Source: Bilabrum cf. latius (taxonomy: Eukaryota). Taken from it: 64,000 nucleotides of DNA. The stretch is from positions 868,001-932,000 of the forward strand of contig OZ237741.1 of assembly GCA_965178125.1 (NCBI GenBank), written 5' to 3'. A program made the translations under genes and the position numbers. The notes under the pieces are model-generated. The model did no database searches, had not been told where the DNA came from, and saw nothing but the letters and a program-made list of their open reading frames with translations. This document shows positions 3-55,445 of this stretch, piece by piece (positions within the stretch are counted from its first letter, which is position 1; each line of letters begins with the position of its first letter).

Positions 3-3000
3 AACGCATGGATCAGGCACCGGCTGCGCAAGATGGCCAAGCTCGAGTCGCTCGCTGACGCAACCACCGCACAGGCATACGCCGCGGCAGCGGCGCAGGA
101 GCAAGAGGACAACGACAGTAGGGTCAGACAGTCTAGCTCGGCAGCCGCAGCGACTGCTGCTACGTATAGTGACATGGGTGGCACGACAATGCAGGGCTCC
201 TCGTCGGCGACGAGAAACGCGCAATCGGGCCACTAGGGTCACATCGGGGACGGCGGTGTGTCGGCTGCTGTCGATCGGGCCTCTCGTGCTCGCATGGCGG
301 AGCAACGTCGGCTGCTTCGAGAGGCCTTCCGTGGCATGCACTTCCTCCTCACCCAGTTCCCGCAGTCGGAGATGGCCTGCATGCTGGCGTCCATCGGGTT
401 CAGGGACCACAGCCCCTGGCTCTTCCACGAGGCTGTGGCCCTTGCCCGCGCCAGGGGGCTGTCCCCCTCCCTAGACGTGCTATTCCACATCTACTAGCGC
501 GCGACCCAGCTCCGCGAGACGGGGTCTGAAGGAGCGTCCCCCATTGACCGCGTCCTATTCGACTAGATGTTCTCGCAGGCGCAGGAGGCTCGCACCAAGT
601 GCTTCCAGCTGCTTACCAGGCTGTGGGCTACCATGGCGCACACGGCACCTGACCTTGACGAGCTCTGGTCCGTTGGGCTGCAGCTCCAGCGCACACTGCG
701 CAAGGCAGACTCTCTGCACAGGGCCATGCTGGAACTCAATGGGGACAGCGCTAGTGCGCTGAGGGCATACGCTAAGCACTTGCTGGATCTGGGGCAGGAC
801 CCAGACAGGGCACAGGAGCTGCTCAACAAGGCAGATAGGTTGGAGGAGGTGCACAAGAGCGACAAGAGGAAGGTCATTAAAACAGTTACCATGTTGACGC
901 CATTTTCGTCCTCCAGCTCGGCATCCTCGGGCTTCGACAGCGTGGATGCGGGCGGCGGGGCTGGCATGGCCTCTGCAAGTGCAGCGGCGGCCAAGCGGAA
1001 GGAACTGGCAGCCCGTGGGATGCTCGGCGTGTCTGCTGTGGAGATGCTGGATGTCAAGGCGGCCCGCCTGTCCATCATGGATGAGAGCAGTGCAGTGATT
1101 GCCATTTCCGGGCAGGGGTCCTCCACCGGCGAGATCGTGGCTGCGTCACCAGCGGCGTGCAGGATGCTGGGATACACGCAATCAGCGCTGTTGGGCCACA
1201 ACATCAATAGCGTGCTACCGGAGCCCATCCGCTCCGCCCACGACTCATTTCTTAACCGGTTTGCTGCGGCCCCAAGGCAGCGCACTAGGGTGCTCAACCG
1301 GGACCGAGCGGTGTTCTACTAGCGCTAGGACGGCTCCCTCGTTCCGGCATGGAATACAATCATCGAGACACCCCCCGACGAGCAAACCTTTGAGCCCAGG
1401 TTTACTGCTGTGATGCGACCCATCGTAAGCGAGGATGACTACATCACCTTTGCGCCCGCCGACGGAGGATTCCGGATGTACGCGGCTACGCAGAGGTCAG
1501 TCGATCTGCTAGGACTGACGCATGAGCAGTTGGGAGATGGCAGGGCAAGTATGCTAACCTATTTTCCCACGGCAGCTAGCTCCTTTACGTCTGCAACCGT
1601 GGAACTCGACCGGGAGCAAGTGCGACAGCTGCGGTTGCAGTCGGCGGCCCAGGACATCAACCGCCAGTTCGGGTTGCGAAAATTGAATCGGAGGACGCGG
1701 CGAGCCTCGATGCTTCTCAGCAAGGGCAAGCCGTCCGAGCGGGATGGCAGCGTTGCATCAGGCCCGCAGACTGGCGAATCAGGAGCAGCTGCTGCACTAG
1801 ATGGAGATGACTTGATGGATATGCTGAGCCAGCTGGAGGGTTCTGTCGGCGGCACCGGTACAAGCCGCAGCCACAGCAAGGCGACTTTGTTCGTCAATGA
1901 CAAAGGCGTCGTCAACCGATCTGGGAGTGGAAGGGTCCTGCAGGAGGACAGCGATGACGGCACCGAGGGCCCTGGGCTGGGCAAACGCGGCATCCAAATG
2001 AAAACCAGGAACGACTCCCCGAACCAGCGGGGGTCTCTGACGCAACAACAGCAGCAGCAGCTATTGGATCGAGCTGGTACCTCACTATCACTCCGCACAG
2101 ACGGTACTGCAGGAGGCATGCAAGGCTCAGTCGCCTCGGGTGGCCAGCAAGGACGCCGAATCGCCGATGTGAAGCCGCTTCTTAGCCTGATGGGCAGCAA
2201 TTCAGGGCTAATTCCCGCGGTCGGGACCCCATAGGGGGACGTGCTGCTGCTGGGCTCAGTTCAGTTCGTGCCTCTTCCCGCGGGTGCGGGCGACTTCTTC
2301 GTGCTACGTTGGAGGTTCGCTGACAAGCGACAGGAAGAAGAGCTTGCACGGGTGGCAGCTATCAGCATGCCCTCGTCCTCCCTGTCGTCTGACGAGCTGG
2401 AAGAGAATGTTACGGGCTGTGGGGACTTTGACAGTGACAAAGGGTCCGATGTTGCGGTTGGATCCGATGTGTTGTAGGGGCAAAACGGGGGAGAGGCCGG
2501 TGGCTCACAACACCATGTCACGCAGGACCCAGCGGAACTAATGCGACGTGAGCACGCCCTCACGCACAGCGTCGGTGCAGATCACCGCTTCCGGACATCC
2601 TCTGACTCCCGCTCAGCCGTCGCGGAGGAGCAAAGCGGCCAGCAAGAGGTACCACAGCGAAACTCAATGGATTACCTCGGATCTAACGGAGACCACACCA
2701 AGTCAAAATGGCACGAAGAGCACACTGGGGTGCTGGATTCACAGGGCTCTGGCAGCCCCATTTTGCACGAGGGGCCCATCGCGGTCGATGATACTGCGCA
2801 TGTACACGGCACGGGGTCAGCGGCCGATGGGCCCAGAGGCAAAGACAGTACCAGCAAGCCGATGCAACCCACAGAGTCCGACTAGCTCAATCCCACTCTG
2901 TCAAGGAGCAAGCTCCGCACACCAACTAAGGAACGGCATTCGCGCAGGCCCAGCGTAGAGGGGCGCGTGTCGATGGAGCTCCGAGTTTCAAGCGCCAGCA

Positions 3001-5690
3001 GACAACACGGGAGGGTGGACAGCGGAGCTCGAATGGGTTCTTCGATGCGTAAGCACAGAACGACGCAAGGCAACCTATTGTTGTAGCCTGAGGGCTCCTC
3101 TGCACAGATCCGTGAGCCCAGGATGGCGGGTATAGTCAAGGGCATGATGAGGCCTTCTGCGGACTACAAGACCTTTCACATCCCTGTGGCTCGCTCTCAA
3201 CGGACCAAGGGCATAGGTGGGGAGTCCCTAGCAAGCAGCGGATCGAATGCCGTGCTGGCTGTGAGGCGAAATATCCGCAACCTCACCAAAGTAACGGAGC
3301 CAGAGGTAGTCCGGTCGAGGAAGACTCTTATCTTCCTGGTCGTATCCGTCCTCATCATCGGTGTCGCGATGATGATATGGCTCGAGGCACAACTGGTTAC
3401 CCTGCGCTTCCTGACCAAGTCACTGACCAAGTCGGGGGAGCGCATGCTGCAGTTCGAATTCGCCATGAGCTACGCAGAGGACATTGACAGGTACAGCGCC
3501 TCGCTGAACGCCACATCGACCGATTTCGTGCTCGACCTCCACGACACCGGCAGCAGCGCGGGTGCCAACCTGATCAGGGACGTGGCCATGATGACGGCGC
3601 ATGCAAAGGCCATGCGAATCAAGCACGAGGAACTGTATGATTCGCAGGAGGACGGTGGCAAGACGGCATTCTCGTTCGAGATGGACCGCACCATCGACGT
3701 CTTGTAGCCATCGGCTGATGTCGGAAGCGAAGCGACGCAGACGCGCACCACCAATTTGGTGGACCTAGGCATGGAAATGCACGCTGCCTTCGCCCGGTTT
3801 GCAGAGCTCCCAGTGCAGTAGATGAACACGGGTGACTCCGTGTCGCTGCGGTTCCTCCTGGCCAACTATGATGTGTTCATAGGGTCCATGAACCAGAGCC
3901 TAGCGCTGCGGCAGGAGGACTTTGCAAGTGCCATGCCGCGCATTCAGCTCGACATCATCTTGGGAGGGATGCTGTCGTTCCTCATGTGCGCAGGGGTGGC
4001 AGCCCCCGTGTTCTACACAGCCGTGCAGGACATTTCGGATCGCACCACAGCCGTCACCATGCTGCTGCTTCACGTTCCCCGACGCCTGGCCAAGGCCCTC
4101 AAGGACCGGGCGCAGCAAAGTCTTGACCGCATGATCGTGGAGCAGGAAGAGGGAAAGGGCGGAGGGTTGGACGATGAGGTTGGCGAGCAGCAGATGCTGG
4201 TGGATGAGGCGGACGGCGATGAGGCGTACCAAGGGGTCCTGCGGGCAGCGGAGAGGCAGGTCGCCCGGCGCATGGCGCAGCATGCCAGAAACCTCGTATC
4301 CACAGGGTCGCAATCCGAGCTTCTTCCTGGAAAACGGACCCATAGTGTGGCTGACGGAGTCGCATACGTGGACATCCAATCCGCTAGCTAGACGTAGTCT
4401 GGAGACGCGCACCACGACAGCAAAATGAAGCGCAGCAGCTTGGTATTGAGCAGTAAGGTGGTTCCCCACGACGGGAGGAGAATGATCGATTCAGATGCTC
4501 CGAGCGGCCTGCTGGCTACCAAGGCTCACTAGGCGGCATCTAGGCGGCACATGAGCGACGGGTATGCGGGCTCTGCAGCCAACCAAACCTATGCCATCCC
4601 CCCGCCCTCCCGACCCCACCAGACGTCTTCCAGCTTCGTTTCCCGCAAGGTGATGCTCCTATTGTCGCCGGTTATCCTCATCCTTGGCCTACTGAGCTTT
4701 ATATCCGTGTACTTCCGGTTCAGAATGATCACCACGGAGACGGCCATCAAACGAGTGACGGTGGTGGAGCAATCGGCGCTGCACTGCCAGGGGGCAACGC
4801 GCCAGGCCATCCGGATGGTTCTCTCCATCCCCGGTTCGACAGAGTAGATGGACGCATACGAACGGATCGTGCAGCACGACCGTCTTATTACGCAGCAGTC
4901 GGAGCTCATCCAATTCGGCGGGGTCGCTACCAGCGACTTTTCCGACATCGAGGTAGATCTGCCCCCCCTGCCAGCTCGATCCACGGCCCTTGAGCTGCTG
5001 CTGAACGATGCGTGCACACCAGTGTACCAGGAGCGGTGGTCCTCCCGGTCGTGGGACGGTGTACTGGAGCTGGATGACAGCAATGAGGTGCTACCCTTTG
5101 AGGTGAGCAACGCCTCCTCTCTCCTGGAGGTGGTCGCCGTGGATGAGGCGGCCCAGCTCGATGAATGCAGGCAGGTGGAAGGCGGGGCCTTAGGCATTGG
5201 CCTGCTCAGCGGAATCGTGGGGCTAAGGTCCATAATCAAGGATCTCCTGTCTTAGATTTCTCCCGCCGCCCCTGCTGCCATGGGCACGGACGAGAACATC
5301 GATAGGCTGATGCGCATGATCGCGCTCGAGCTACCTCATATGCGGGATGCGTACGGGCTTACCCTGTGGCTAATGGACACAGAGGTTGGTACCATCCTGC
5401 AAGAGACGCGATCCATGGCTCAGATCGTGACGTATGTATTCACTGCCGCATTCACGATGGCGGTGGCCCTGTACTACTGGCCGCAGGCCAGCTCGCTGTA
5501 GGAGTCCCTGTAGTCAGCCAGGGAACTATTGACCCTAGTGCCTGAAGAGGTGCAGATGGTGGTAACTCCGCTGAGGAGGGGGCTACAGGTGATAGCGTCC
5601 AAGCAGGAGACAGGCGAGCAGGGGCTGCCGGGTCTCTCGCCCCAGTCGAGGTGCTGCGGATGCTGCCGGTGCAGGTCAAGGTGCTGCTGA
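3..5690 (+). CDS. PAS-domain multi-pass membrane protein, TmcB/TmcC (tiny macrocysts)-like; 5' end outside window; >1,890 aa if TAG=Gln
   Basis: ORFs 33-236, 258-497, 567-1322, 1410-2234, 2241-2477, 2541-2885, 3123-3707, 3822-4391, 4551-4847, 4848-5255 and 5280-5501 share one frame, separated only by ~18 TAGs; first TGA at 5688-5690. TPR-like ALRAYAKHLLDLGQDPDRAQELLNKADRLEE, PAS fold (GEIVAASPAACRMLGYTQSALLGHNINSVLPEPIRSAHDSFL), paired C-terminal TM helices, Cys-rich tail CCGCCRCRSRCC. Confidence 0.8.
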
Positions 5691-6007: not shown

Positions 6008-9000
6008 ATGCTTCGCTACTAGTACCTTCTTGCTGGCCTACTTGCTGCTGCTGTGCTCACAACAGGTGAGCTTCTTTTATCGAAGCAGCAAGCTCTTTGT
6101 TTATCTACACTACTAGTCTATAGATCACGGTGCTGACTGGTTCATGTATTGAGAGTCCGTGTAAATTCAAGGCTGAACGAAGATCGCCCACGGCTTTGCA
6201 CTTTTTTTCTGATCAGCTAATACATCTCTCAGGGACCCAAGCGTCGTGCTCAAATGGCCGAAAGGATATTAATGGTAAGGATTAGCCAATAAGCCATGAA
6301 TATCTTTTGAATGGATCGTGTAATGTTCAATGTAGTTCGACTGCTACATTCATTTAGTTTTTGTCGCAAGCGCATGACTGCTTTAAGCCACTGTATCATA
6401 CTCATGTTTTCGATAAAAGCAAGATGAAACAATAGCGTTACCGCAACCGCAGAGTATGGCGTTGACTGTGGGGGTGCGTGCACCCGGACGTGCGACGCGA
6501 ATAGACTCAACATCCGCGACAACTACGGCTCCAGTACCGTGCAGACAGATGGACGAGCTATCACGATGGGATCAAGCCAATCCTCTTGCCCGGGCTCCTG
6601 GACTAGGTCTGGGTCTTACATCTACCAGCGTGCAAACTGCAATGCGAGGTGGTCCGGGCCAGTCCGGGATACCAACAATCGTTGTCACACATGTGGGGGT
6701 GGTGCTATGTACTTGATGCAGCGGTAAGTTCTGAAATCAAAGCTGGCCGTAGCCTCTAATTTTGCCGGAATTTATTTCTTTCACTTTTATATTTGCCTGA
6801 TGTGCTCCCCGCAGCCTCGGCAAGCTCGGCGATTTCGTTGCCGAATTCACCCTGCGCTCCAACGACAACGATGCGTTCGGCGTGGTCTGGTCTCACTCCG
6901 GTGGAACAGGCACCTCGTTCAGCAGCCTGTACGAGATCTCGTATCACTACGGCTCGAGGTGCCTCCAGCTGGTGAAGCGCGAGGGGACCACGAACTGGTA
7001 CCTGCAGAAGACCGCCAACTCCAACTCGTACCGCTACCCCATCCGCACGTTCTTCCGTGTTCGTCTGACATACATTCAGGGCTACATCAAGTTCGAGATC
7101 AGGCACTCCGGCTCGACCTACATCACCGCTCTCGAGTACACGGATCCGAACCCGCTGTCAGCTGGCAACATCGGCTTCTCGAGCTGTGGCCAGCAGAACA
7201 AGTGAGGGTGATTCTTCAGGTGCATCCACCGTTCGTATCGAGGACTTGGTCACTGTATCTCTATGACTGTATCTCTTTGCAACAGTGGCCTTGCATTGCT
7301 GCTGTGCCCATGCCTGCCCTCTCCGCTTTTGCCACCCGAGGTCCCTCGCAGCTACTACCGCATCGATTCTCTCCGGCTACTTGACAACACCTGCGACCGC
7401 ACGCTGCCCAAGTCGTCCTCCTCGCTCAAGATGCACCTGACGTCCGATTCATTCAAGCAGAGCAATATCAATACGGCTGTCAGCTGGTGGCGCGACATCA
7501 GCGGCTACAACAACCACGCCTGGTCCTCGTCCAGCTCTCAGTACCCCAACGTGGCCCGCAGCCGATGGACGGGGCAGAAAGTCATCAGCTTCATCAGCAG
7601 TGACTTAATGAGCATCAGCGGTGCCTACCCGCTAGACCCTCGTGCAGCTGGCATGTCGCTGTACATGGTGATGGATCCGAAGCAGGAGACTGGCGCTATC
7701 CTCATGGGCCCCCAGAGAAGGACAGGTAGTGTGCGCCTGCTCACGGAGCAGTTTTCTGGTATCTCGAACGGTGCTGGCTACTCTGGCTCTAATACCTTGC
7801 GTAATTCGAACTAGTTCTCGTCTCGATTTCACATCAGCCTGGGAGGCGCGCGGCTGTTCGGAGGTGACTATGCGCGGGTCTGGGGCGGCGTTTTTCAGAC
7901 CCAGGACACGAGTGCTTGGATTCGCCTGACTCTCAGAAACATCAACATCGCTGGTTATCGCAACGTTAGGGTCAGATACAGCCTTCGCAGATACGGGTGA
8001 GTTTTCAAACTGTCAGGTATAAATGTTTTTTTGGATAGAGTGTACATCCAAGCGCAGATCTGGTTTCCTCCTGCTACCATGCCAACTCCTTGCAGTGTGA
8101 ACGATAATGGAGACTGCGTCGAAGCGTGGGCTAGCTACAACGGAGGCAGCTCCTACACGCGCCACCACAGGCTCTGTAGAGACGGGTCGTGGCGGTAGTA
8201 CAGCTTCAACGTGCCCTCTACCGCCACCTAGCTTCGAGTGCAATTCCGGATGTTCCACAGCTGGGGGCCCGAGGGTGCGCAGCTCGACAACATCTACATT
8301 GATGGAGAGCCACGATCCTCTTCTATTGGTTACTCGTCATCGGCTGTGATCACGGCTGGTATCGGGATCAGCCCACCCCTCCAGGGATCCAGAGCGGTGG
8401 CCTCTTCCACCCGCGCTGTCAACGACAAGCCCATCGTGCTTTCCATGCGCGTGAACCCACACAACAGCAACAGGAACTCTCGCCTTCGCCTGTCCATGGA
8501 CGGCGTGCAGTTCTACGACGGCAACCGGGCAGGCTTCACCGATGGATCGCCCTACATGTACCACATCTCGCGCCTCTTCGATGGCGGCCAGGAGGGTCTC
8601 CTGTACGAGATGCAGGTGCACGACCGAGGGCTGAGCGATGCAGACCACAGAGAGGTGGAGCAGTCCCTGCTGACCAAGTACAGGATCTCAAGCAGCACAA
8701 CCACGTGTCCCACCATCTCGGGCGACGGAAGTGCCTGGGGCTACGGCAGCGCTACCCGAGTGACTAGCAGTCGCTGTATTGGTGGCCGCACCTCCCAGCA
8801 GTGCCAGTTCAACTGCAACTCCAACTTCATCCCTATTCGCGGCCAGTCCTCGCGCACCTGCACCAACTTCGGTCTGTGGGACGGCGCGCCCCTGTCCTGT
8901 GCGCGGAGCTGTCCCAAGCTCACTGCAGCACGGTCAGCTGGGTGCGAGCGGTCCTACATCGACGAGAGCTTCCGGTCCGGCACTGCCACGCGCGGTGGAG

Positions 9001-12000
9001 GCTCCGACAGACTGGTAGCTCTGCCGTGGCGTGGGTCCACAACCGGGTGGAGTGCTTCCATCCAGCAATGGCGTGTGAACGGCGGTTACCTGAGTCTGAA
9101 CCGCGGCGATTCGTGCTCGACTCTGCAGCGGGCCGACAACTACCTCGTGACGATGGATCAGGGCTGGGAATCCAAGAATTTCCCGCTCGACGTGTCTGCT
9201 GATGTGTATGGGAGCACGGGATCTGCTGGATTTGTGATCCGCACGCAGTTTGACAAGAACGATCCGTACAACAAGGCTATGGCTGACCACTACCTGGTGG
9301 TGATCGACTGGTCCGACAGGCGCATACGGGTGTAGAGGAGGGCAGCAGGAGAGCTGCGTGGTGCTATCTGTAACACGCAGCTGGCCAGCTCTGTGATCAA
9401 GACCAACACGTGGCAGGACCTGCGCGTGCGAGCCGAGGGCAATCGCTTCCAGGTGTACCTGGATGGGACCAGGCGGTGCGACGTGCGGGATGGATCTGCT
9501 GATGCCCTGCCGTCAGGTGGTGCCGGTGTGTACATGGATACTCCTGGAGCGCCCGCCCGCTTCCGTGACCTCAAGATCAAGCAGGTAGACGACACATGCA
9601 TGAATGGATGCGACGAGATGGCAGCTGGCGAGACCTGCACGTTCGCTTGCCAATCACCATTTGTGGCCCGTGGCGATGTGTCTCGCACGTGCCAGACGAA
9701 CGGTGCGTGGAGTGGGACGGCGGTGGGCTGTGGTTATCCACTTCCCACTGTGTCCAATCAGGCCCGTGAGATCCTCGAGGAGAGTCCGGAGAATACCGCA
9801 GTTGGTACCCCATTGACAGCCACGGCCGCTGCTGGTCTCGAGGTGCAGTTCGAGATCGTGTCGGGCAATACTGGCGACGCATTCCGCGTGTCGAGCTGCA
9901 CTGGGCAGCTTCGTGTGGCCACGCCCAGTGCAATCGACTACGAGAGTGGGACACGCACCTTCACCCTGGGCATGCGTGCGATGACCGAGGGCGACACTGA
10001 CGCGGCCGCCACATTCACGGTGACTGTGACTGTACTCGACAGGAACGAGCCCCCGGAGTTTGCGGCACAGTCGCGATCCATCAACGAGAATGCCGCTGCT
10101 GGCACCAATGTTGGAGCTGCCCTAACTGCCACAGACCCTGAGGGCGATGACATCGTGTGGTCCATCGAGCTGGGCAACGCCAACAACGCCTTCCAGATCT
10201 CGTCCAGCGGGCAGCTGACCGCCGGAACCACGACGCCGAGCCCGCTTGATTTCGAACAGACTCCCACGTGGCGCATCGTGGTGCGAGCCGCGAACGTGGA
10301 GGAACAGGATGGCTCCGACGTGGTGGTGGCGTACACGGAGGCCACCATCACCGTGACCCTGAACGACGTGAACGAGCCTCCAGTTGCCAACAACATGACC
10401 GTGAAGATCCTGGAGACTTTCGGACAGCAGGGCCAGACCGGCGCAGATCGCAGCGTGGGCACTCTTGCCATCGTGGACCAGGACGTGGGGCAGACTGTGT
10501 CTCTGGCGGCTGGATCGGGCTACCAGTCCAGCCAGTTCAGCGTGTTTGGCAATGGATCTGTGCGCTTGAAGTCAGGCGTCACGCTGGATTACGAGACCCG
10601 ACCCGTGGTGCTGGTGCCCTTTATCGCATCGGACGACCACAGCCCCTCTGCGTCAGCTCAAGGCTTTGTGGTGATTGAGCTGGAGGACGTGAATGAGAGT
10701 CCTGTGGTGTCTTGGCCGGGCGAGTCAGGCGTGCCTGCTTTGAGTGTGCTGGAGGACGCCGGTGTCGGCGACGAGGTGGGCCGGATCGTGGCCACGGATC
10801 CCGATCGCGGGCAGCTGGCTCGCTTCCGCATCGACTCGCAGAGCCCAGCAGGCAAGTTGCTCATCAACACGGAGACTGGCATGATCACGCTGGCCGCCCC
10901 TCCCGCAGGCTCCATCGGCCCATTGCTGGACACGGAGACGCAGCCCACGCTTGGTGCCAACATCACAGTGTACGACACGGAGTTTGAGGTGCATCGTGAG
11001 GTGATCATCACTGTGGCGAATGTGGACGAGCCTCCAGTATTCACGACTGCCAGGCAGGGTGCTCTGGGTGTCAACGAGAACTCTGAGTCTGCTTCTGCCG
11101 CTGCTCGCACCTCAGTCGGCACCGTTCGTGCCAACGACCCCGAGTCTGGGACTGGCTCAGGTGTGACGTACAGCATCGTGTCATAGGATGCCACGAGGGC
11201 CGGTCACACGGCTCCCTTCGTGCTGGACTCCACCACCGGGCTGCTGCAGGTGAACGACGCGGAACAGGGAGGCGAGAAACCCGACCTGGATCACGAGTTC
11301 CAGGGCGGGTACATGGCCATCAATATCAGTGCCTCGGATGGCAGCGCCCCGGCCGGTGCCACCGTGATGGAGTTCCTGGTGACCATCCGCAATGTGAACG
11401 AGGCCCCGTCTCTGGATGCCTCGAGCGGCAACTTCTTCGCAGCAGCCTCTCGAGCCGGCACGATTGGGCGCCCCCTCGCGACATTCGTCGCGGACGAGGA
11501 CCTGCAGAGCAGCACGTTCACGGAGCGGTTCAACTTCTCGATCACGGCAGGAGACAGTGACGGTATCTTCAGCGTGGAGCAGGGTACTGGCCAGCTGTTT
11601 GTGACTGCCACTAACGCGGCCAAGGACGGCTTCGCCTTCTCGTCCACCGGCGTAGCAGGAGCCAACCAGTTCAGTCTGAGTGTCCAGGTGACAGACAAGG
11701 AGGGCCTGACTGGTACCGGCACTGTGCTTGTGCAACTGACTGATACCAACCTAGCGCCGACGTTCAGTGCCACATCGTTCACCATTGCTGTGGATGAGAA
11801 CGCAGCGGATGCTACGCTTGTGGGCCGCATCGATGCTTCGGATGCCAATGATGGACAGACAGTCTCGTTTTCCTTGGCACCGACCGGTGCCTCTGCCAAC
11901 GCTCCGTTCCCGTTCGTGGTGCAGAGCGCCACTGGCGGTGATGTCAGCAGCGGCGCAGACGGCACAGCCATCATCCAGGTGGCATCTGGTTCCGGTGGAG

Positions 12001-15000
12001 CCGGCCCCGGGCTGCTCGACTACGAACATGGCACAAGACGGTTTGAGGCCGTGCTGACAGCCACTGACTCGCACAGCACTACTCCGCTCAGCAGCGCTAC
12101 CACCATCGTGATCAATGTGAATGAGGTGGCTGAGGCGCCCTACTTCGACACGGCCCGGCGGATCCCATCTTCTGCGCGGTTCGACGTGACCATCGAGGAG
12201 GGCGCGGCGGAGGGCACTGCTGTCCGCATGGCTGATGCCGCCGAGGAGGCCACGCCGGGACAAGGCGCTGTGGCTGTGCTGATGGCGCGCGAGGACGATG
12301 TGGCTGACAACGGCACGGTTCGGTACACGATCCGCGCCCCCACTGGCGCGTCACCCACATCACAGAGCACTCGCGCGTGCGGCAGTGCAGTGACCATCTT
12401 GGGCGATGGATCTAGCGGGTCTCTCGGTGTTGGCCAAGCAGGTGTGCTCGACTTTGAGCTGAGCCCCAGCTTCCGGTGCACCATCGTGGCTACGGATGGG
12501 CGCGGTGCCTCAGACACGGCCGACGTCTTCATCGCGCTGATCGACTCGAACGACTACCCGTCTGTGCCTGCCGACCAGGTCCTGGCTGTGGCAGAGGACG
12601 CTGCGGCAGGCGCTGCTGTGGGCACAGTGTCCATCTCTGACCCCGACTCTCGGGAGGAATGGCGCAGCTTCGAGGTGCTGCTGGCCGGCGATCCCAGTTT
12701 GCTGGTTGCGCAGAACGCTAGCTCCTCTCCTGACCAGGGTGACGGTGACGAGGACGATGGGGTTGAGGTGGGCGGCAACTCGACAGCCCCGGATGCCGGT
12801 GACCAGGGCACCACTGGGAATAACACCGCTCCCAGCCCGCAGGCTGTGGAGGACGCCATGGTGTACGAGCTGTTCGAGATGGATCGATCGTCTGGCAGCC
12901 TGCGTCTGAGGCCGGGCCAGCAGCTGGACTGGGAGATGCGGGCCTCGTACGAGGTGCGTGTGATCGTGACGGATGGAGGCGGTCTCCGCACGGATGCATC
13001 TGTCACGGTGCGCGTGCAGGACGTGGACGATGCGTTCATCTCTGGGTTCAGGTACATGGAAGACACGGACGCTGCCATCGGGCCTGATGGCACAGTGATG
13101 GGCGAAGGCATCGGTGGTGAGGACGGTGGCTTTGTGCAGCCTGGTGCGGGCGACAATGCGACGGCTGGTGGTGGTGGCATCGGTGCCGAGGGTGGCAGCG
13201 TGTAGTACGGCACGGTGGGCGGCGACTGGGTTGTGCTTCAGGGGTCTGGCTTCTCTCCAGTGCAGGCTCGCGTGGATGCCGAGAGTCTCGACCTGAGCAC
13301 GTACCAGCTGACGGCTTCCTATGGGCCTGCCTCTGATCCCACTCGATACACTGCGTCTGAGTGCCGCTTTGAGCAGGCCGGCTTTGAGGTGGCCTGCAGG
13401 GTGGTCGAGGGTGTGGGTGCTGGGCACGTGTGGGTGCTTCGGCTGCTTGACTCGGCCAACGCGCGCGATCACTCGGCATCATCGACCGAGTCCTCTGCTA
13501 CCACGTCTTACTCGGCACCGTCGATCACGAGCGTGGCAGGCGTGGGCGGGACAGGCAACATCCTGTCAACTCGCGGCGCGGCTGATGACACCGTGTCCAT
13601 CGTAGTGGAAGGCGCCGACTTCGGGCCGGTGGGCACGCTGGTGCAGCTGAGCTACGGACCCGATCTGGCAGAGAATGCATTCGCGGCTCGCGACTGCCGT
13701 GTGACGAATGCGCACGTGCAGATCACGTGCCACCCTGTTGCTGGTGTGGGCGGGCCTCTAGAGTTCATTGCTACAGTTGGTGGCCAGATATCCGTGGGCT
13801 TCGGCAGCTCGGTGTCGTACGAGACCCCGACCGTCACCTCAATCATGGTTGGCGCGGATGAGTCGAGCTCCGTTGGTCTGGACTCGCTGCCTACAGCTGG
13901 TGGGCCCATCATCTCTATGACCGGATCCGGCTTCGGGCCTGCTCTGGCCCAGAGCCACCCCATCGTGCTGGCGGGCCTCGACGTGCGGGCCACTTTCGGT
14001 GGTGCCAACTCGACCCGATTCATGGCGGTGGGATGCGAGGTGGTGCGTGATCACGACATGGTGAACTGCACGCTGCCACAGGGTCTCGGTAAGATGCACT
14101 CGTGGATCGTGTACGCTGGCGGCCTGCAGTCGACTCCCACATCTGGTGCCCTTCGTACGTCGTACGCTATCCCTACAGTGACAAGTGTGGGTGGCCCCGG
14201 TGCGGTAGCAGGCTCCACTCGCGGTGGACTGGAGCTGCTGGTGAGCGGCACTGACTTCGGGCCTACCGGCTGGACTACCGAGGACTACGCAGATCTGGGT
14301 CCTCACGGTGACAACAGCTGGATGGCGGGCGGTGTGTCCATCATGCCAAGCGTGACGTACGGTGGACTCAACTCGGCTCGGTTCCTGGCTGCGTCTTGCC
14401 GTGTATCGCTCGCGCATTCGCAGATCACATGCGTCACGTCGGTCGGCACTGGCGCGAACCACACCGTGCGTGCCGCGGTGGGCGGTCAGATGTCTGAGTC
14501 CACTATGCCCGCTGCTGCTGAGACCAGTGAGGATGCCGATGGCCTTGTGGATGAAGTCGAGGTGACGACCGTCAGCTATGCCGCGCCCGTTGTGTCTCTG
14601 TACGAGGGCGAGGGCGCTGTGGACGCCAGCACACCAGGCGGGGACGTGGTTGTGATCAGGGGCGAGCACTTCGGGCCCGTGGGCAAGGCCTTCTTGGATG
14701 AGGTCAGGTACGGGCTGGAGGAGCGAGACGTTGACTTGGAGGAGATGGACCGCAGGGGACTCGAGTTCGATGCCACTGCCAGCTGCAACGTGACCGTGGC
14801 GCACGAGGAGATCACGTGCGCCAAGCAGCCAGGCGCCGGTGCTGGCCTGAAATGGCGTGTCATCGTGGATGGGCTGGAGTCGAGGCAGCCCACCACGGCG
14901 TACGCCGCACCGAGCGTGTCGGCTGTGATTGATCCTGCCACTGGTGACTCCAATGGCCTCGTGGTGACTGACGCATGGACAGATGGCGGGCAGGTGTTTG

Positions 15001-18000
15001 AGCTCACGGGCGAGAACTTCGGACCTCCCATGGCGCAGGCCCCGTTCGGGCGCGTGTACCTGGACTCGGTACGGTATGGCGCATCGGGGCAAGAGTATGA
15101 CGCCAGGAACTGCACCGTGCTGTCTCACGAGCGGATCCGCTGTCGCACGGCAGCTGGTGTGGGCCGGGGCCATGTGTTCCGGGTCACTGTGCGCGGACAG
15201 TCCTCTGCCCTGAACCCCACAGCCACCCTGTCTTACGCGCCTCCTGTGCTGACAAACGTGCAGCCCACGAACGGTCCCACGAAGGGCCTCGTTGCCGTGA
15301 CTGTGGATGGGACCAACCTCGGTCTTCAGGACTCTCGCATCCGATCTGGCGATGCTGGCGATGAGTCGGGCAGCTCGTCTCAGTCTTCACTGCGTCTGCT
15401 GTTCGGGTTCCCCGACGGCACCACCGGGCATGTTGACTCGACCCGCGCTGTGGTGCTGCAGTCCGCCGGCACCACGACAGCCCCTGCGCACCGCGTCACG
15501 TTCCTGCTGCCCGAGGGAGAGGGCTCCGACCTGGGCGTGCAGGCACTGGTGGACCCGGGACAGGGCCCCTCGTCCTGGCTGCGGTCGAACGTGGTGGCAT
15601 TCGACTACGACAGCCCTGCACTGACCCGGTTGCATGCCGAGTTGTTCGATCCGATCGATCGCCCGACCGACTACCGCATCACGGCAACAGGCACCAACTT
15701 CGGTCCCAGCCCCGTGTTCGTGGTGGGCGAGGCCCCGCCTCAGGTGGGCTTCGATCCCCCCACGTGTCCAACCACCAGTCAGGGCGTGCTGCTGCTGGCC
15801 CGCTGGGAGGTGGCTGCGCATTCTGAGTGCGAGATCGTGTCGGGTCACGAGCAGGTGAACTGCATCGTGTCCAATGTGGAGCGGGGATGCGTATGGGTGC
15901 AGGACGGCACGGGCCGCGAGACAGCGGGCGTGTTGTTCGAGTCAGTGTCACCGTCCATCGCAGAGCGAGGCGATGGCGAGGTCAGGCCCGACTTGGCCAC
16001 CCGTGGCGGCACTGTGATCACCATGCGGGGCACGGCTTGGTCCACAACCGCTGGCGTGATGTCTGTGGACGTGGACGGCAGCCCGTGCACGAACGTGTCA
16101 GTGCGGTGCGTTGATGCCGCCCCGTGCACCGCCGCCTCAACGTACGAGCTGACGTGCACAGCACCTGCAGGACAGGGTGCAGGCATCGGTGTGACGGTGC
16201 TCCGAGGCGGCGTGGCATCGCTTCCTGACTTCGACTGGAACTACGCTGCGCCGTCGGTGTCATCTGTGAGTCCCTCGCTGCTGCCCACCTCTGGTGGCCG
16301 GACCACGATCACTGGCATGAACTTTGGCGCTGTGCCTGGGGATGCCGGCGTGGTGGTTGATGGCGTGAATGTGGACGTGGTGTCTTGGGACCACGAGGAG
16401 GTGGTGCTAGATGTGAGGGAGGGACAGGGCGCCGCCCGTAACGCCTTTTTGGACAATGGCCGGCTATCGGATTCCTTCCAGATCGGATATATGGCTCCTT
16501 CCGTGGCGTCAGCTGCCCTTGTTGGTGGTGGCGAGCTGGATGTGCCTTCTCGCGGCAGGGTCAACGTGACGCTGGCAGGATCGAACTTTGGCGTGCAGGC
16601 ACCCGCCGTGCATCTCGTGTGGAACCCGTCTGTGCCTCGCGCGCTGCCAGCCCCCTTGGATGGTGACGGCAACCCGTTGCCTACCCCTGTGGAGCCAGCC
16701 GTACCTGCACCGCTGGAGTGCATGACTGTTGGCTGGACACACACAAGCGTGACTTGCACCGTGCCCGCCGGTCAGGGTGCCGGGTGGGGCTGGCGCGTGA
16801 CAGCTGGTGGGCAGTCCAACGACGCTGCCGCGGCGGAGGCAGCCTTCTAGTATAACGCCCCTCGGGTGCTTGGCTTTGCCTCCGAAAACGATGCCATGTC
16901 GCTGGTGGGCGGCTCTCGGGACCCGTCTGTGCCTCTGTTCCCGACTGAAGGCGGAGTGGTGGTGAATGTGTCGTGCGCGGATTGCGGTACGATGGGTGCC
17001 GTTGTGCGCGTGCTGCCGACCCCCGATGCTGGTGAGGCTGCCGCTCGCCGCGCGCAGACCGGAAGTGGTCCTGCGTGGTTCGGTGCCGTGGTGCCTGTGC
17101 TATCGCAGGACCATGACCAGATCTCCTTCGTGCTTCCCGAGGGCCAGGGCGACGGTCTGATGATCGATGTGGTGGTGATGGGCCAGCGCAGTGCTGGTGC
17201 CAGCGACTTCGAGTACGATGCCCCGTACATCGCGTATGTAGCCATGCCAGCCGAGGTGCCAACTCGAGGCACGTTCGCCGAGAGCATCGCACCTGAGGAC
17301 AGGGCAGCCATGCGCGTGCTGGGCCACTCGTTCGGAATTGCGGCCACGGCGCGCACTGAGATGCGGCTGCTGCCTCCTCGCATCGACGGGGCCATGGAGG
17401 TGACGCAGGACGAGTTCTTCGCCTCTCCGCCGCTGCAGGCCACCGACGAGATGGGCCGTCCTCGCGGCGTACCCACCGCCCGCATCCCCCTGAGCCTTCG
17501 ACCAGACGTGGCCGAGCCCAGTGGATATGCCCTCGACACCTCGGGGGCGCGCTTCCACTCGCATTCTGAGATCCCGGCTGGGGTGCCCCAGGGCTATGGC
17601 CGTGACCTGCGACTGGTGGTGGCAGTGGACGGGCGCCTGTCAAACCCCGTGTCGGTCAGCTACGATGCCCCCGAGATCTTCTTTGTCAGTCCCAACCAGC
17701 CCAGCGCAGCCGGCGACACCGTGTTGATTTTTGGCACCAACCTCGGCGAGACCCCGCCACTGCCCGGTGACGGTTTCTTGGTGAGCATCGGAGGTCTGAA
17801 CTGCACCAATGGCGGCGGCAGGTGGACGCTTGACTCCGCCGCTGTCCCGCCTGAGCCATTTCTGGAGTGCGAGACCATGGAGGACCGCGCTGGCCGCAAG
17901 AACATCTCCGTGAGCGTGGCTCTGCAAGAGACCAGGTACAACGACGAGCTGTCCCTGCGGCTGTCTGCCGAGTGCGACAACGACTACTATGGTGACAACG

Positions 18001-20414
18001 GCGAGTGGTGCCTGGATTGTCCCGTGGGTGCCGACTGCCCTGGTGGACCGGTGGACCCCGTGTCGCTGGCTGGGTTCTTCGACATGCGGCCCAACATCTC
18101 TGCAGCTGACCCCAACAAGCGGGACGAGCTGGCATGCCCGGAGGAGCGCCGTGGGGAGGTGTCCCAGGAGCTGCGATCCTACTGCTTCCACTTCTTGCCG
18201 TGCCAGCCACAGGACGCGTGCCTGGGCAACAACGAGTGCTCCGCGGCGTACACAGGTCCGCGGTGCGCCGAGTGCTCCGAGGGCCATTTCCGGTCTACGC
18301 TGGGCGTATGCGAGGAGTGCCCCGACAACCAGTGGGTGATCCTGATCCTGTTTGTGGTGGCAGTTCTTGCCATGGGTATCGGTGCGTACTTCGTGGCCAA
18401 GGCTGACATCCAGATCGCACCCCTGAGTCTGAGTCTGGACTATGCCCAGGTGCTTGCCATCCTTGCTCGATCCAAGGTGCCGTGGCCTCCGATCGTGCTG
18501 AACATCTTCCGCATCCTGTCGGCCTTCAACCTCAACATCGACATCGTGGCCCCTCAGTGCATCGTGCCCAACGTGGGCTACATCGCGCAGTGGACTGCCA
18601 TCATGCTGCTGCCCCTCGCGGCTTTGGCAATGTTCGGGCTGTGTCACGTGTCTCTGTACCTGTACAAGCTGGTGGTGCTGGGCCGCCCCAAGAGCAAGCG
18701 CTGCAACCACTATCCTATCCTGCTCATGATGGGCTCTGGCTCGCTGTACATCCTGTACCTGCAGCTCACACGCACCATCCTGGACGTGTGGAACTGCAGT
18801 CCCACCACCCCACCTGACGGCAAGCTATACCTTCAGGTCGTGTTCGAGGAGTGCGGCAAGCCAGGCGGCGTGTAGATGACGCTGCTTCCGTTCGCCATCA
18901 TTGCTTTTGCAGTATACACTGTGGCATACCCAGTGACTGTGGCCGTGCTGCTGTACAGGAGCCGTGACCTGATCGTGGAGGACCAGCTGCTGAGGGCGCG
19001 CGGTCTTGGCAAGGACCGTGCCACCAACCCGCATGCCTTCGACACGCGCAAGAGTCTGCACAAGCTGTACTACTTCTTCCGTCCTGTGGTGGCCCCGTAC
19101 TGGATCCTGACCATCTTGGCCCGCAAGTTCGGTGTGGCTGTAGTGAGCCTGCTGTTCGTGAATAATGCTGCGTACCAGCTGGCCACCCTGCTGCTGGTGG
19201 TGTTCCTGAGCTACACAGCCCAGGTGTACGTGATGCCGTACATGTCTCGCGAGGACATGGCCGATGTCATCCGCGACCATGAGCAGCGCTGCGAGGACGG
19301 CGATGTGCTGCACGTGACCATCAAGGGCAGGCTGCAGCGCGTGTTCCAGGACCGTGCCAAGGCCTGGGACCGCCGCCGCTTCGGGTAGGGCATCAGCGGC
19401 AGTGCCAGCGACGACTCGCTGATGGCGTCTGTGACTGCGGCCGCCACCCAGTGCGCTGTGTCGTACAACACTCTGGAGAGCACACAGCTGGCGCTGACTG
19501 TACTGATCGCGCTGTCTGGCGTGTGCTTCCAGTCGGGCCGCTTCGACGACGAGTTGATCGGGGTGCAGTCGAGTCGCGCTATCGAGCGCGATGTGCTGAC
19601 AGTGGTGACCATGATGCTGATCTTCGGCGGGCTGATCTTCTGCGCTGTGTCCATCGGCCTGGAGGTGTACACGTCTCTGAACGAGCAGCGGCGCAAGGAC
19701 GCGCTGAGCAAGGCCGGACAGGGCAAGGGTGGCAAGGCTGGCAAGGGCAAGGCCGGCCCCATGTCCCAGCGCGCCATGAAGGAGCTCCAGCGGCTCAGGG
19801 ACCTCGAAACCGGCGGCAGCTCGGCTGCCGGGGACAGCGGCGGCGCCGGTGGACTGGAGATGTCCGGCGGCAACGCGGAGTCTGCGTCCGGCGTGGGCGT
19901 GAACCCGATGTTCCTCGGCTCCGGGTCCTCCAAGGGGGCCGACACGGGTGCCAAGGCCGATGAGGCCCTCCTGGCTACTGACGTGCCGGACGCCGCGACA
20001 TGGCAGTTCGTGCGGAACCACGTGCGCGAGCTCAAGGCGGAGGTGCAGCGCCTGCGGAAGACCGAAGGCATGGCCGGAATGGGCGACAACCTGTCCACTG
20101 GAGTAGCCAGTGAGGGTGCTGGTCGCCGAGTGCGTCGTGCCGGTCGCACTGGATCGGCCGGCCGGTCTCGGAATGCCTTCGGCCCCACCAAGGCGGAGGG
20201 TGCGGCGTCGCCAGGCGCAGCCGGCGCTGTGGACATCCGGCGTGCTGGACGCAACTCCCTGCGTGCTGGCCGGGCCGGTGGGTCTCGGCGCGGGCTACTG
20301 AGCCGGACCGCCTCTGGCTCGGACCAGACGCAGAACCCGTTGACTCGCTCCAGGGCCCGGTCGACGAGCACGGGCAGCAATGGTGCCGTGAGTGTTACTG
20401 GGGAATCGCAGTGA
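6008..20414 (+). CDS. Giant cadherin-repeat surface protein with ~9-TM C-terminus (nonagonal-cadherin-like), copy A, ~4,573 aa
   Basis: Inferred exons 6008-6065, 6233-6274, 6453-6723, 6815-7201, 7352-7996, 8096-20414; all GT-AG, phases compatible, total 13,722 nt. Signal peptide MLRY(Q)YLLAGLLAAAVLTTGTQA; SCSNGRKDINEYGVDCGGAC motif; lectin-like beta domains; 2 sushi/CCP; ~9 cadherin repeats (DYE, AxDPD, DxNEPP; ~9750-13030); ~11 IPT/TIG repeats (GxxFGP; ~13200-17970); Cys-rich EGF-like; ~9 TM helices (18330-19670); cytoplasmic tail. 10 in-frame TAGs; ends TGA. Confidence 0.88.
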
Positions 20415-20550
20415 GTGGAAGTTTCTGCGCTTGTTTTCTTCTTTTCTTTTGAGTGTTTCTTGCTTGTGGGATGTTTGGTTTGGCGCTCTCCAGTGCGGTG
20501 GAGGAGAGCGCTGTTCGCTGAGCTGATCTGGTGTTGTGCTTGGTGCTTGT

Positions 20551-20826
20551 TTGGACGTGCGCCCATTGTGCGCCACGCTTCTGGGTTCCTGATCCGCCCC
20601 GGGGAGGCCTTCGCCCGATGTGCTGCTGACCTGCATGGATGACCGAGAGCCTTTGGCTCACACACGATGCATCGCGATCCACCTAGTGTCGCCCTTTGCA
20701 CTTGCAAGGGGGCACACGGGTGGGGTCGTGATGTGTTTGTGTGCGTGATTCCGTGCATGCAGTGAGCACTTCTAGAGCAAAGCCGCCCGGGGACTGGCAG
20801 GACCAAAGCGGCTACAGAGTCCAAAT
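20551..20826 (+). other. Conserved non-coding block downstream of cadherin copy A (3' UTR / regulatory candidate)
   Basis: Near-identical to the reverse complement of ~40016-40294, although the preceding ~200 nt (C-terminal tail and proximal UTR) do not align; TGA occurs early in all three sense frames. Confidence 0.7.
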
Positions 20827-21217
20827 TGAAGCAGCTTGTACAGGCCACCTGATGAACGATGGGCATCACCAAATGCTGGCCATCGTTCGATGAGGGTGTC
20901 CCATGCCTTGGTGTAGTCTCAGCGTGATTTCGCTTGACCAGTACTTGTTTTCACAATTAGCAATAGTGTCTATATCCGGGCTATGACAGCACTGCACACT
21001 AAAGACTCTGACTTGGCAATGCACCTACTCAACTGGCTAGACTAGCCTAATGAGACTGAATGCACTAGAGCTATGGTGGGTACTCGGGATGCGACAAAAT
21101 TTCCAGCGCAATCAAACCGAAATGATCAGTAAAACACATGGGACGTCCGCTCGGCGGCGCTTGCGGCAGGCGGCCCGGCCCAGATAGGCCTTCGTTGTCA
21201 CCCACTTGCATCAAACC

Positions 21218-24035
21218 TCACGCATGACCAGCTGCACCTCCCTGCACGGGGGACTGCACGTCCACAAGCGCAGTCCCATTGCCAGCCGACACCACCGCAC
21301 CACTGGCATTTGCCACCTCCTTCGCATCCTGACCATGGGCCGCCTTCTCCTCCTCGTCGATGGTCGTCTTGAGGCTGGTGTGGCCTCCGCACTCGAAGTG
21401 GATGGGCGTCTTAGTGGGGCTCTCCGCCTTGTCGATGATGTAGCACACCAGGATGGTGTCAATGGTGATCTGGAATATCGAGAAGAAGGCGACAGCCACG
21501 AAGTACGCGAAGATGAAGGTCACCAGCACGGGCAGCCAGGAGCTGGTCAGCTCGTACTCTCCGCCTGCCTTGTAGCTATCGGTGGAATCGATCCAGTACC
21601 AGGCCACCCACGCGCTGGCAACAGAGAGCAGGATCTTGCCCAGGAATGTGACGAGCGACGCCAGCACGGACAGCACGGAGAACAGGCCGAAGTTGCTAAT
21701 GATCAGCTTGAGGACGTCACCGGTAGCGTAGCAGAAGCTGTAGCCCTTGATGGCTGTCACGATGAGCACGTTCCTCGCGAGTGTGTCCACCAGCCACTGG
21801 AGGCAACCGAGGCAGGACCGGATGCAGCAGATGACGTACTGCATGATGATGTTGGGCTCGCCATTGCTGGCCTCCTTGATCTTGTTCACGATGTACTCAA
21901 ACACGGCGCGGATGAACTGCACGAGAGCGATCAGGAACGACGCGAAGGCGATGGTCCCAAGGTGTGTCTTGATGATGAGCCACAGGTTGGAGAACACGTA
22001 GAAGCCACCCCAGCAGCAGGGGTTCCGGGTGTACACGGGCACCTCCTTGGACTCGCAGAAAGAGCCGTTCTCGCCCACCCTCTTGTCCATGCTGAAGTAC
22101 CACCCCGCGATGGTCATGCCGATCGACATGGTGCCGATCTGGATGATGAACTGGTTGGTCCACAGAAGGCCAAAGAAATGGTACGCCAGCAGGTACTGGC
22201 TGATGTCGTTCGTCTCGAATGACTCGAAGGTTGCATTCGCGTTTGCCAGTAGATCGCTGCTAGCCGTTGAGTTCGAGAAGGGCAGGTTGGCAGTGGCTGC
22301 CTCGACCGACGCCGTCACGTCCTGCTGACTGATCTCGCCTGCAGTTGCGAGGGCAGCTGCCACGTACAGCCACCACAGGTAGAAGCACACGAGTCCTGCC
22401 ACGGTGGTGAGCGGGAAGAAGATGATGGCCGGGTTGGAGTACACGGCGATGGCTGACACCGAGATGATGTTGATGGCATTCTGGATGCTGTTCCGCATGG
22501 CAATGACCAGGGCCAGCAGCAGGATGCAGCACACGGTACCGACGTATGCCATGATGGCGTACGCCTGCTCAGAGTCCTTATCCGAGTTAAGGCTCTCCTA
22601 GAAGGTGCTGTCGCCCTGTTGGGCAAGGGCGTCTTCCAGCCCGGGCACGTCCTCCACCACGAGGATGCCGCCGAGGAAGTAGAAGTAGAATGTCAGCGCG
22701 ATGCTGCCGAACAGAGTCAGCAGGATGGTGGTCCATACAATGACGCAGGTGCAGTATCGAAGGAAGACCATCCATGCGAAGCCAAGGACCACGCCGATGA
22801 TGATGGAGCTGACGAAGATCACCGAGGCAGTCAGCTGGATGTCAGCAAAGTACCGGCCCCAGGTCATGCCCGCCGAGTTGAGGCTGTCAAAGAGCAGGTT
22901 GGGCTGTGCGGTGCGGATGACCGTTCCGTTGTTGTTGTCCTCTCGCAGGATACAGGCTGGATCGTTGACGCTCGAGACACCCTCCGGCCGGATGCAGCGG
23001 CTCGAGGAGTCGGACGAGACCTCGTACTGCGGGATGCAGCGGTAGAAGGTGGCAGCAGTGTCAAGCGGGACCACCCAGCAGTTGCCCCTGATCTGGTTCT
23101 GGCACTCGCTCTGGGTGATGGTCCGGTTCGATGGGTTGTAGCGGGGGCCGAAGGCGATGCACGCCTCAACGTCGATCCGGTTCTTCCCTGCAAGGATCGA
23201 GCAACGTTTTGAAGCAAAAATAGTTCAAATAGTAACACCCTTTGCATATCTTCTGGCCATCGAAAGTCATGTTTCGACGCTGGGAACGGCGCGTGCCAGA
23301 CCCGACTCATCTCACCCCCCAGGTCGTACTCGTAGTTGCAGATGACCCGATCAGACGACTGCGGGCACTCCTCCACGCAGACGCCGTAAAAGCGGTACTC
23401 TGAAATGTCTTTGTCGTAGTTCACGAGGATGTCCTCGTTCGTCCTGGGGTAAATGATGTGGTCCCGAGACTCGAAGTCGTCCTGCCCGCACACGTTGCCC
23501 TCGTAGTCAACACCATAGACTGCAGCAATTAAAAAATAGGTAATGGGGCCGGATATTCATGGCAGCGACAAACTTAGCCATGGCAAGAGGAGCCAGTCGC
23601 ACTCGGGTAGACAAGCCAGTCTCAATCAATCAGGCTCACCAAGTCGAAAAGGGTTGCCTTGGGCCAAACCTATCGCTCCGATTACAATCATTCCGATCCA
23701 AAACACGATGAAGACGATGCAACAGATGATGTCGGTGCACCTGCGCGACATAGCAGAAAGAGCCGAAACTGTCGGTTTCGATGTGGTGCTGGCCGGTCCG
23801 GCTGGAGGCTGCTTAACAGCCTCCTCGCATCTCGCAAAAATAAAAGAAGAAACACGTGAAACAATTAAACTCACCCGCGCTTGCTGACTGGGATCATTCC
23901 CAGCGCTTTGTCATCCCACCGCTTCTCAGCGTATTCGATGCGAGGATCTACCTCTGCTGGCTTGTCAGCCGCTCCTCCGGCAGCCAACTACTGGCTATCG
24001 CCATTATCAGTACCCTAAACAGGATGTGTGCTCAT
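21218..24035 (-). CDS. Choline transporter-like protein (CTL / SLC44 / PNS1 family), ~811 aa
   Basis: Inferred exons 24035-23875, 23740-23640, 23519-23316, 23187-21218. Splicing rebuilds KRGCTDIICC and RLVYGVDYEGNVCG; also VCVEECP, HFFGLLWTNQF, HLGTIAFASFLIA, DTILVCYIID. 3 in-frame TAGs; ends TGA. Confidence 0.9.
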
Positions 24036-54737: not shown

Positions 54738-55445
54738 GGTGCGATCGCAAGTTGACAAATTCGACGTAGTTCACGTACAATCTAGAGCACTGGCACGGAT
54801 TGTCCGAGTACTAAAAGGTTCGACTCAGAGCGACACCCTTGCGGTGGGAAAGATGCGCTCAAACGTCGCTTGGAAGTGCGACAGGGAAACTTTCCGTGCA
54901 TTGCCGAGGCCGACATCCATCGAAAATCTTCATCATTTCAATTTTGGCAAACTGCACTGCACTGTGAGATTTGGTCGCGTTGACTTCCGCATGGCCTAGG
55001 CCGCCACGGGCTGCGAAATGGTTGAGAATAACACTGAATACGGGCCTCCAAACTTGAGCCTTCTGCGCAGTCATGAGGTTTGGCCGAAGAATGAAGCCTT
55101 GACACGGATGCGAGCTGCCCTGCACGGCCGCATTGCAGGCTGGTCGAAGTATGAATGAGGGGTAAGCATAGCAAAAATTATGGGAGCATTCCATCACGCG
55201 AACCACAAGTTCTCTTCTGAAGGGTGTTTGGTGGCACAACTGGCATTCAGCGACGCACTGCCCCCAGCCAGTGTGCTGCAGTGCCGTTGTTGCGACCAAC
55301 CGATCCACTTCAGCTATTGTTGCGATCAACACACTGCTGGGAGACCAGCGTGAAGCCCAAGAATCATATACTCCTTGAATTCATTCACTATCGTGGTTTC
55401 AGACTACTCTCATATCTTGGTGGAGCTGTTTTAGTAGAACTGCCC

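Follow-up and report, generated by a model that had tools for sequence, protein, structure and literature searches.

In-frame TAG exchanged with CAG between two inverted cadherin/TIG genes of Bilabrum cf. latius points to a nuclear code in which TAG is glutamine

The DNA analysed here, referred to below as the window, is a stretch of 64,000 nucleotides of Bilabrum cf. latius (contig OZ237741.1 of assembly GCA_965178125.1, positions 868,001-932,000 of the forward strand). Its GC content varies between 52 and 65% along the sequence and is about 60% overall. If the window is translated with the standard code (table 11), its long genes fall apart, whereas reading through TAG gives ten long open reading frames (ORFs). 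Their products are a TmcB-like PAS protein, two cadherin/TIG proteins, a choline-transporter-like (CTL) protein, a family 3 glycoside hydrolase (GH3), a P5A-type ATPase and four proteins without a Pfam family. Together the ten ORFs comprise about 19,400 codons, among which TAG occurs in frame 83 times (82 once intron and leader parts are trimmed), and TAA and TGA not at all. TAA and TGA, never met in frame, serve as terminators, which places the code with table 15 and not with table 6. Judging from the sequence, we consider it very probable that the nuclear code used here reads TAG as glutamine (Gln) and retains both TAA and TGA as stops, which is the pattern of NCBI table 15. Part of the evidence comes from the two cadherin/TIG genes, in which the same codon positions can be compared between paralogues.

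The two cadherin/TIG genes

Both cadherin/TIG genes are about 4100 codons long and are inverted relative to each other. Their features are as follows.

6815..20414, plus strand: cadherin/TIG copy A; stop TGA at 20412-20414; nine in-frame TAGs
6815-7201, 7352-7996 and 8096-20414, plus strand: exons of copy A, in addition to an upstream exon ending at 6723
6724-6814, 7202-7351 and 7997-8095 (99 bases), plus strand: GT-AG introns of copy A, from splice junctions and spliced translation
7812, 8196, 8229, 9333, 11184, 13203, 16848, 18873 and 19386, plus strand: in-frame TAGs of copy A
40408..53964, minus strand: cadherin/TIG copy B, inverted; stop TGA; seven in-frame TAGs
53964-53578, 53435-52791 and 52696-40408, minus strand: exons of copy B, in addition to an upstream exon ending at 54083; its GT-AG junctions correspond in position to those of copy A
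52910, 52408, 52177, 50311, 49489, 43942 and 41404, minus strand: in-frame TAGs of copy B (low coordinate of each codon)
8112..20381 (plus strand) against 52680-40441 (minus strand): core used for rate tests; 4090 aligned codons, 10 TAG/CAG swaps and 2 shared TAGs

Copy A matches the Pfam families Cadherin (8.8e-52), TIG (2.6e-38), Sushi, 3keto-disac_hyd and DUF7630; the Cadherin family itself (PF00028) scores 173.9 bits over three stretches, compared to a cut-off of 28.8. In the spliced models of both copies the frames are uninterrupted and the protein is conserved. An in-frame TGA at 7998 was considered as a true stop and rejected, as it is part of the GTGAGT donor of the 99-base intron; because the spliced model turns this TGA into an intron donor, the TAG at 7812 is exonic. 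An extra TAG of copy B, seen at 52738 in the raw alignment, falls in an intron of that copy. The gene limits of 6008 and 54737 proposed in the first-pass annotation of this stretch were not confirmed, the 5'-most exons being diverged.

According to blastn, 8112-20345 and the reverse complement of 52680-40447 are 97.4% identical (12241 columns, 300 mismatches), 6810-7832 and 53969-52956 are 86% identical, and in the 3' flank 20551-20831 and 40294-40015 are 96% identical. A further upstream block, 6491-6732, shows 72% identity between the copies. The MAFFT alignment is gapless from about 8088 to 20402, giving a 12.3-kb core without frame-breaking indels. The duplication in its full extent (6491-20831 and 40015-54315) is a mosaic with patches of strong divergence (about 8031-8400 and 9531-9831), and looks like the outcome of gene conversion homogenising an older duplication.

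In the core, the nonsynonymous divergence (dN) is 0.011 and the synonymous divergence (dS) 0.077 by the Nei-Gojobori method with TAG taken as Gln. The resulting dN/dS is 0.149 and drops to 0.10 when the diverged patches are left out. There are 308 codons that differ, 210 of them by a single synonymous and 58 by a single nonsynonymous change. Thus, the ratio that had been suggested as a gauge of decay shows none in either copy; purifying selection acts on the two genes, which are functional paralogues.

We then compared the TAG positions codon by codon, which reproduced every coordinate listed in the first-pass annotation. Copy A has TAG and copy B has CAG at 7812, 8196, 8229, 9333, 11184, 13203 and 18873, while at 8382, 8613, 10479 and 11301 it is copy A that has CAG and copy B that has TAG (52408-10, 52177-9, 50311-3 and 49489-91). 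Two TAGs are common to both copies (16848/43942 and 19386/41404). Consequently, the copies differ at 12 TAG sites, 11 of which are TAG/CAG and one TAG/CGG, so that TAG is not seen opposite a mixture of residues. How frequent such swaps are in the core can be judged against other C/T differences:

CAG/TAG: 10 of 134 sites
CTG/TTG, synonymous first-position C/T: 7 of 196 sites
third-position C/T: 93 of 2265 sites
fourfold C/T: 50 of 1284 sites
nonsynonymous first-position C/T, seven classes pooled: 1 of 798 sites

The CAG/TAG rate is far above that of nonsynonymous first-position changes (Fisher p = 2.7e-8) and shows no distinguishable difference from either CTG/TTG (p = 0.13) or third-position C/T changes (p = 0.08). 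Under a mutational null model in which any one-step neighbour of TAG may be the partner, weighted by codon use and transition bias, finding CAG as the partner in 10 cases out of 10 has a probability between 5e-5 and 1e-3. The low dN/dS and the swap rates together imply that both copies are functional and that the exchange of TAG and CAG behaves like a silent one. The proposal that the two codons are interchangeable as synonyms is therefore borne out. The additional proposal that they interchange in both directions holds insofar as TAG can occur in either copy; however, all 11 swaps might be changes from CAG to TAG.

TAG is a minor, non-preferred Gln codon with fast turnover. Its share of Gln codons is about 10% in the window as a whole and 4-5% in the cadherin genes, ranging from 4% to 22% across genes. 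Over the ten genes this share rises with that of CAA (rho 0.87) and falls with the GC content of third codon positions (rho -0.76). In the cadherin core 2 TAGs are shared and 10 unshared, compared to 16 shared and 7 unshared for TTG (p = 0.0045); at fourfold sites, T/T pairs number 442 and C/T pairs 50. The TAGs of the cadherin genes thus look young and short-lived. GC-biased pressure or a mild decoding cost may act on TAG.

Homologues, neighbouring genes and stop codons

Evidence for the meaning of TAG from outside the window comes from three neighbouring genes.

24356..26848, plus strand: GH3 glycoside hydrolase gene; Pfam GH3 N- and C-terminal domains, Fn3-like; stop TGA; TAGs at residues 79, 89, 123 and 672
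31649..36709, plus strand: P5A-type ATPase gene; stop TAA; four in-frame TAGs (residues 337, 874, 1213 and 1270)
21218..23074, minus strand: CTL gene, identified by Pfam; stop TGA; one TAG, at residue 159

The GH3 residues are numbered from position 24191. Codons 1-55 of this ORF (24191-24355), which contain a TAG at residue 36, resemble neither the homologues nor the related metagenome contig L001 described below; this part is probably a leader or an intron, and a signal-peptide exon may be located upstream. The most informative columns were obtained by aligning, with MAFFT, 150 GH3 homologues from an exhaustive HMMER search. Column 79 has Gln in 126 of 135 non-gap sequences (93%), the remainder being seven Glu and two Met, with 15 gaps. 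In column 123 Gln is present in 129 of 134 (96%), together with five single other residues, none of them glutamate (Glu), and 16 gaps. Both TAGs are also opposite Gln in the best solved relatives (PDB alignment). That two TAGs fall in strongly Gln columns is telling, because among the ordinary CAG/CAA Gln positions of this GH3 covered by at least 50 non-gap homologues, just 4 of 33 lie in columns with more than 70% Gln. In the P5A-type ATPase, residue 337 belongs to the LTGESVP-x-K motif; of 120 homologues, 69 have Gln there and 36 have Leu. The single TAG of CTL, at residue 159, corresponds to Gln in a database protein (P0001) that is 98% identical. This protein has about 47 N-terminal residues more than the window ORF, and the CTL gene probably has an upstream exon outside the ORF model.

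A scan of metagenome contigs yielded L001, a contig of 6284 bases with 55.5% GC, in which GH3 and the neighbouring minus-strand gene follow the order of the window, with a DNA identity of about 72%. Its GH3 ORF contains nine in-frame TAGs and ends with TAA, at a final residue identical to that of the window gene, which ends with TGA. In the homologous part the two GH3 genes share two TAGs, and all seven unshared ones are opposite either CAG (5) or CAA (2). Since a TAG/CAA pair requires two base changes, what is conserved is the amino acid and not merely a neighbouring codon. The presence of in-frame TAGs and a TAA stop in L001 also means that the code is common to at least two related environmental organisms. 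Another contig, L009, has a more distant, intron-rich GH3 without an informative TAG; the other metagenome loci (L002-L008 and L010-L021) are 30-43% identical, and L001 and L009 are the two that were read for TAGs. Database GH3 fragments from close relatives stop directly ahead of TAG 672 or of the TAG positions of L001, which shows that gene callers using the standard code cut these genes short.

The other genes of the window include two that are especially rich in TAG.

33..5690, plus strand: TmcB-like PAS protein gene, an ORF under TAG = Gln identified by Pfam; stop TGA; 18 in-frame TAGs
55224..63629, plus strand: 2801-codon ORF without a Pfam family; stop TGA; 23 in-frame TAGs

The latter is one of four long, low-complexity ORFs without a Pfam family (the others are at 26977-31062, 36823-38652 and 38721-39770), all rich in Ser, Ala, Gly and Arg and carrying 4-23 in-frame TAGs each. 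At the DNA level, ORF 26977-31062 has two short matches to L001 (65 and 122 columns, 83% and 75% identity). The ten ORFs end with TGA in seven cases, TAA in three and TAG in none. No Rfam family matches the window. The window represents nuclear DNA from an intron-poor eukaryote with a high GC content; a phage or bacterial origin is ruled out by the introns and by eukaryotic genes (P5A ATPase, CTL and cadherin/TIG). Scans of viral-contig collections returned no usable relative: the scan with P0001 found one encoded relative but no distinct locus, and the window itself may be recorded in that collection, in which case a eukaryotic contig would be filed there as viral.

Alternative readings of TAG

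A number of observations weigh against the assignment of TAG to Gln or fail to assist it. In the cadherin pair, the TAG of copy B at 52910 faces CGG (Arg) at 7875 of copy A, within a diverged patch. Among the conserved genes, several TAG columns are variable and hence uninformative, namely GH3 residues 672 (V 46, Q 26, I 20) and 89 (E 28, K 16, Q 9) and P5A residue 1213 (K 42, R 30, Q 14), and the TAGs at P5A residues 874 and 1270 are in insertions and equally uninformative. The MAFFT column of GH3 residue 36 has Tyr in 71 of 99 non-gap sequences; we discount it because it is upstream of nearly all HMMER match starts and in a leader unlike L001, so this TAG is probably not coding. No tRNA gene, including tRNA-Gln(CUA), was found in the window or L001, nor any tRNA gene in L009, and the window contains no eRF1. 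Finally, a sample of ten window genes leaves room for rare, context-dependent termination at TAG.

This last point leads to the possibility that TAG is ambiguous, being Gln inside genes while still terminating in some contexts. Ambiguous stop codes are known in karyorelict ciliates and in Condylostoma, and the under-use and short life of TAG in the cadherin genes relative to TTG would fit a decoding cost. However, TAG is found at none of 11 gene ends (10 in the window and one in L001), genes with 18 and 23 TAGs yield product only if decoding is almost complete at every one of them, and the use of TAG follows ordinary codon bias. We therefore regard such ambiguity as highly unlikely.

The two cadherin copies might also be an assembly artefact in which haplotypes or strains were joined head to head, making the swaps allelic. 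Close variants do exist, as database proteins are 97-98% identical to the CTL and GH3 of the window. On the other hand, the inverted arms are about 19 kb apart, the spacer between them is unique and gene-bearing, the divergence is a mosaic (72%, 86% and 97.4%), and the copies are unlike at their 5' and 3' ends. The chance of an artefact thus seems slim, and even a real one would leave the codon inference unchanged.

A more direct challenge is that TAG stands for another amino acid, Glu being the most plausible, and that the swaps are tolerated Gln/Glu replacements. Peritrich ciliates read UAR (UAA and UAG) as Glu. In the cadherin core, Gln and Glu are exchanged through CAG/GAG at 3 of 300 sites, a frequency similar to that of neutral C/G changes (11 of 1675). 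As this exchange is close to neutral, TAG = Glu would predict a similar number of CAG/TAG swaps. Glu also occurs in 7 of 135 homologues in GH3 column 79. Against this, there are no TAG/GAG swaps at 177 sites, compared to about 2.9 expected from the neutral G/T rate (22 of 1336; P about 0.05), so that the paralogues alone disfavour Glu by about 18 to 1, a figure that itself counts against a firm assignment from this pair. It is the outside evidence that decides: the 93% and 96% Gln of GH3 columns 79 and 123, the latter without Glu; the seven unshared TAGs opposite CAG or CAA and none opposite GAG or GAA in L001; and the Gln of P0001 at the CTL position. For Trp, Tyr, Leu, Ser and Lys there are no swaps of TAG with their own codons, and radical first-position C/T changes are as rare as 1 in 798. 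Pyrrolysine was likewise rejected as the meaning of TAG, which aligns with Gln. Taken together, a meaning other than Gln appears very improbable. In other words, the paralogues prove that TAG is a sense codon interchangeable with Gln, but alone they do not fix Gln versus Glu. The first-pass annotation, which held Gln to be established without any database, was right about the amino acid but not about the sufficiency of the pair.

It could further be argued that TAA and TAG both encode Gln, as in table 6, and that TAA is rare because of the high GC content. The table 6 code is also used by diplomonads and oxymonads, and applying it to the window extends a few ORFs slightly. As far as the cited account goes, UAA and UAG are usually reassigned together (PMC11687900). 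However, with CAA and CAG present in a ratio of 140:572, about 20 in-frame TAAs would be expected and none is observed (P = 1.5e-9). Moreover, TAA ends three of the ten window ORFs as well as the GH3 of L001, the latter at the same residue as the window GH3. This makes a shared reassignment extremely unlikely.

Finally, the view that the TAGs are nonsense mutations in decaying pseudogenes, the cadherin copies and other ORFs alike, could appeal to CAG to TAG being a common nonsense mutation and to only 2 of 14 cadherin TAG sites being common to both copies, yet its probability is negligible in the face of the low dN/dS and the excess of synonymous changes (210 to 58), the lack of in-frame TGA or TAA in about 19,400 codons, the absence of frame-breaking indels over 12.3 kb and the TAGs common to the L001 orthologue at only 72% DNA identity; low dN/dS and the exclusive use of TAG refute it.

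Origin and significance of the TAG = Gln code

With TAG read as Gln, CAG and TAG are only a silent first-position C/T change apart, so that such differences have built up in each copy independently and at roughly the neutral rate, giving the 11 swaps. UAG would be decoded by a tRNA-Gln with the anticodon CUA, and eRF1 would no longer recognise UAG, as is well established for other lineages. This part of the mechanism we infer by analogy, since neither component is encoded in the window; suppressor tRNAs are described for other reassigned lineages in the text cited here (PMC11687900).

Where the organism belongs can be addressed to some extent through its conserved genes. Their database relatives are mostly environmental sequences, the best for CTL being 98% and the next 37% identical, and those of P5A reaching 45%. 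A protein atlas added no more than generic choline-transporter clusters for CTL. In a FastTree analysis of 35 P5A sequences, the window falls in an environmental clade of 9 sequences, inside a clade of 18 that includes stramenopiles. As a weak lead, the P5A sequence suggests that the window adjoins stramenopiles, in a tree that represents one gene with biased sampling and includes no named alveolate, rhizarian, ciliate or fornicate.

Nuclear codes that split UAG from UAA are few. Those with UAG = Gln, as listed in a 2024 paper, belong to a fornicate, Iotanema spirale, and to three ciliate lineages, namely Protocruzia tuzeti, Hartmannula sinica and Trochilia petrani (PMC11687900; PMC5304391). 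According to these accounts they resemble the window in using UAG for Gln and UAA as a stop, as deduced from in-frame UAG at conserved Gln columns. In contrast to them, the window has about 60% GC, long genes and few GT-AG introns, and its P5A is placed beside stramenopiles in a tree without ciliates or fornicates. A cognate tRNA is reported for the ciliates, whereas none is seen in the window. The better known assignment of UAR to Gln, as listed in the sources cited, is that of many ciliates, ulvophycean green algae, Hexamita, Streblomastix and Amoeboaphelidium (NCBI table 6; PMC11687900). There too a stop codon one transition from CAG has been captured by Gln, but in the window TAA still functions as a stop and does not occur in frame. 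Genetic code 15 has been described, in the cited text, for crAss-like and other phages (PMC9523058), with the same codon table and TAG = Gln. Those are phages in bacterial hosts, whereas the window has spliceosomal introns and eukaryotic genes. Within SAR (stramenopiles, alveolates and Rhizaria), Amoebophrya sp. ex Karlodinium veneficum is described in the cited source as having an AT-rich genome and an ambiguous code with all three stops in frame (PMC12005148). Its in-frame UAG is thought to be Gln, as is the TAG of the window; unlike in that protist, only TAG is in frame here, and the genome is GC-rich. In a limited literature collection we found no report of UAG alone encoding Gln in a labyrinthulomycete, thraustochytrid, dinoflagellate or other GC-rich protist. 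The code is of a known kind, probably in a lineage not previously reported to use it.

It is tempting to go one step further and suppose that the window and L001 represent an undescribed GC-rich protist lineage, possibly affiliated with SAR, which reassigned UAG alone to Gln independently. It would add another origin to the rare cases in which UAG has parted from UAA, and among nuclear genomes rich in GC it would be the first, the disfavoured and rapidly turned over TAG perhaps reflecting a young or costly reassignment. We see the chances of this scenario as evenly balanced. If it is a further case, it would offer one more example from which to learn how eRF1 gives up UAG yet keeps UAA, and the change would be seen in a GC-rich, non-ciliate-looking genome that has an environmental relative of the same kind. 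There are practical consequences as well. TAG = Gln explains the fragmented entries for these genes in public protein sets, and table 15 is required for annotating this genome. Comparison of paralogues, for its part, is a cheap, reference-free test for a stop codon read as sense, although here it gives no firm separation of Gln from Glu by itself.

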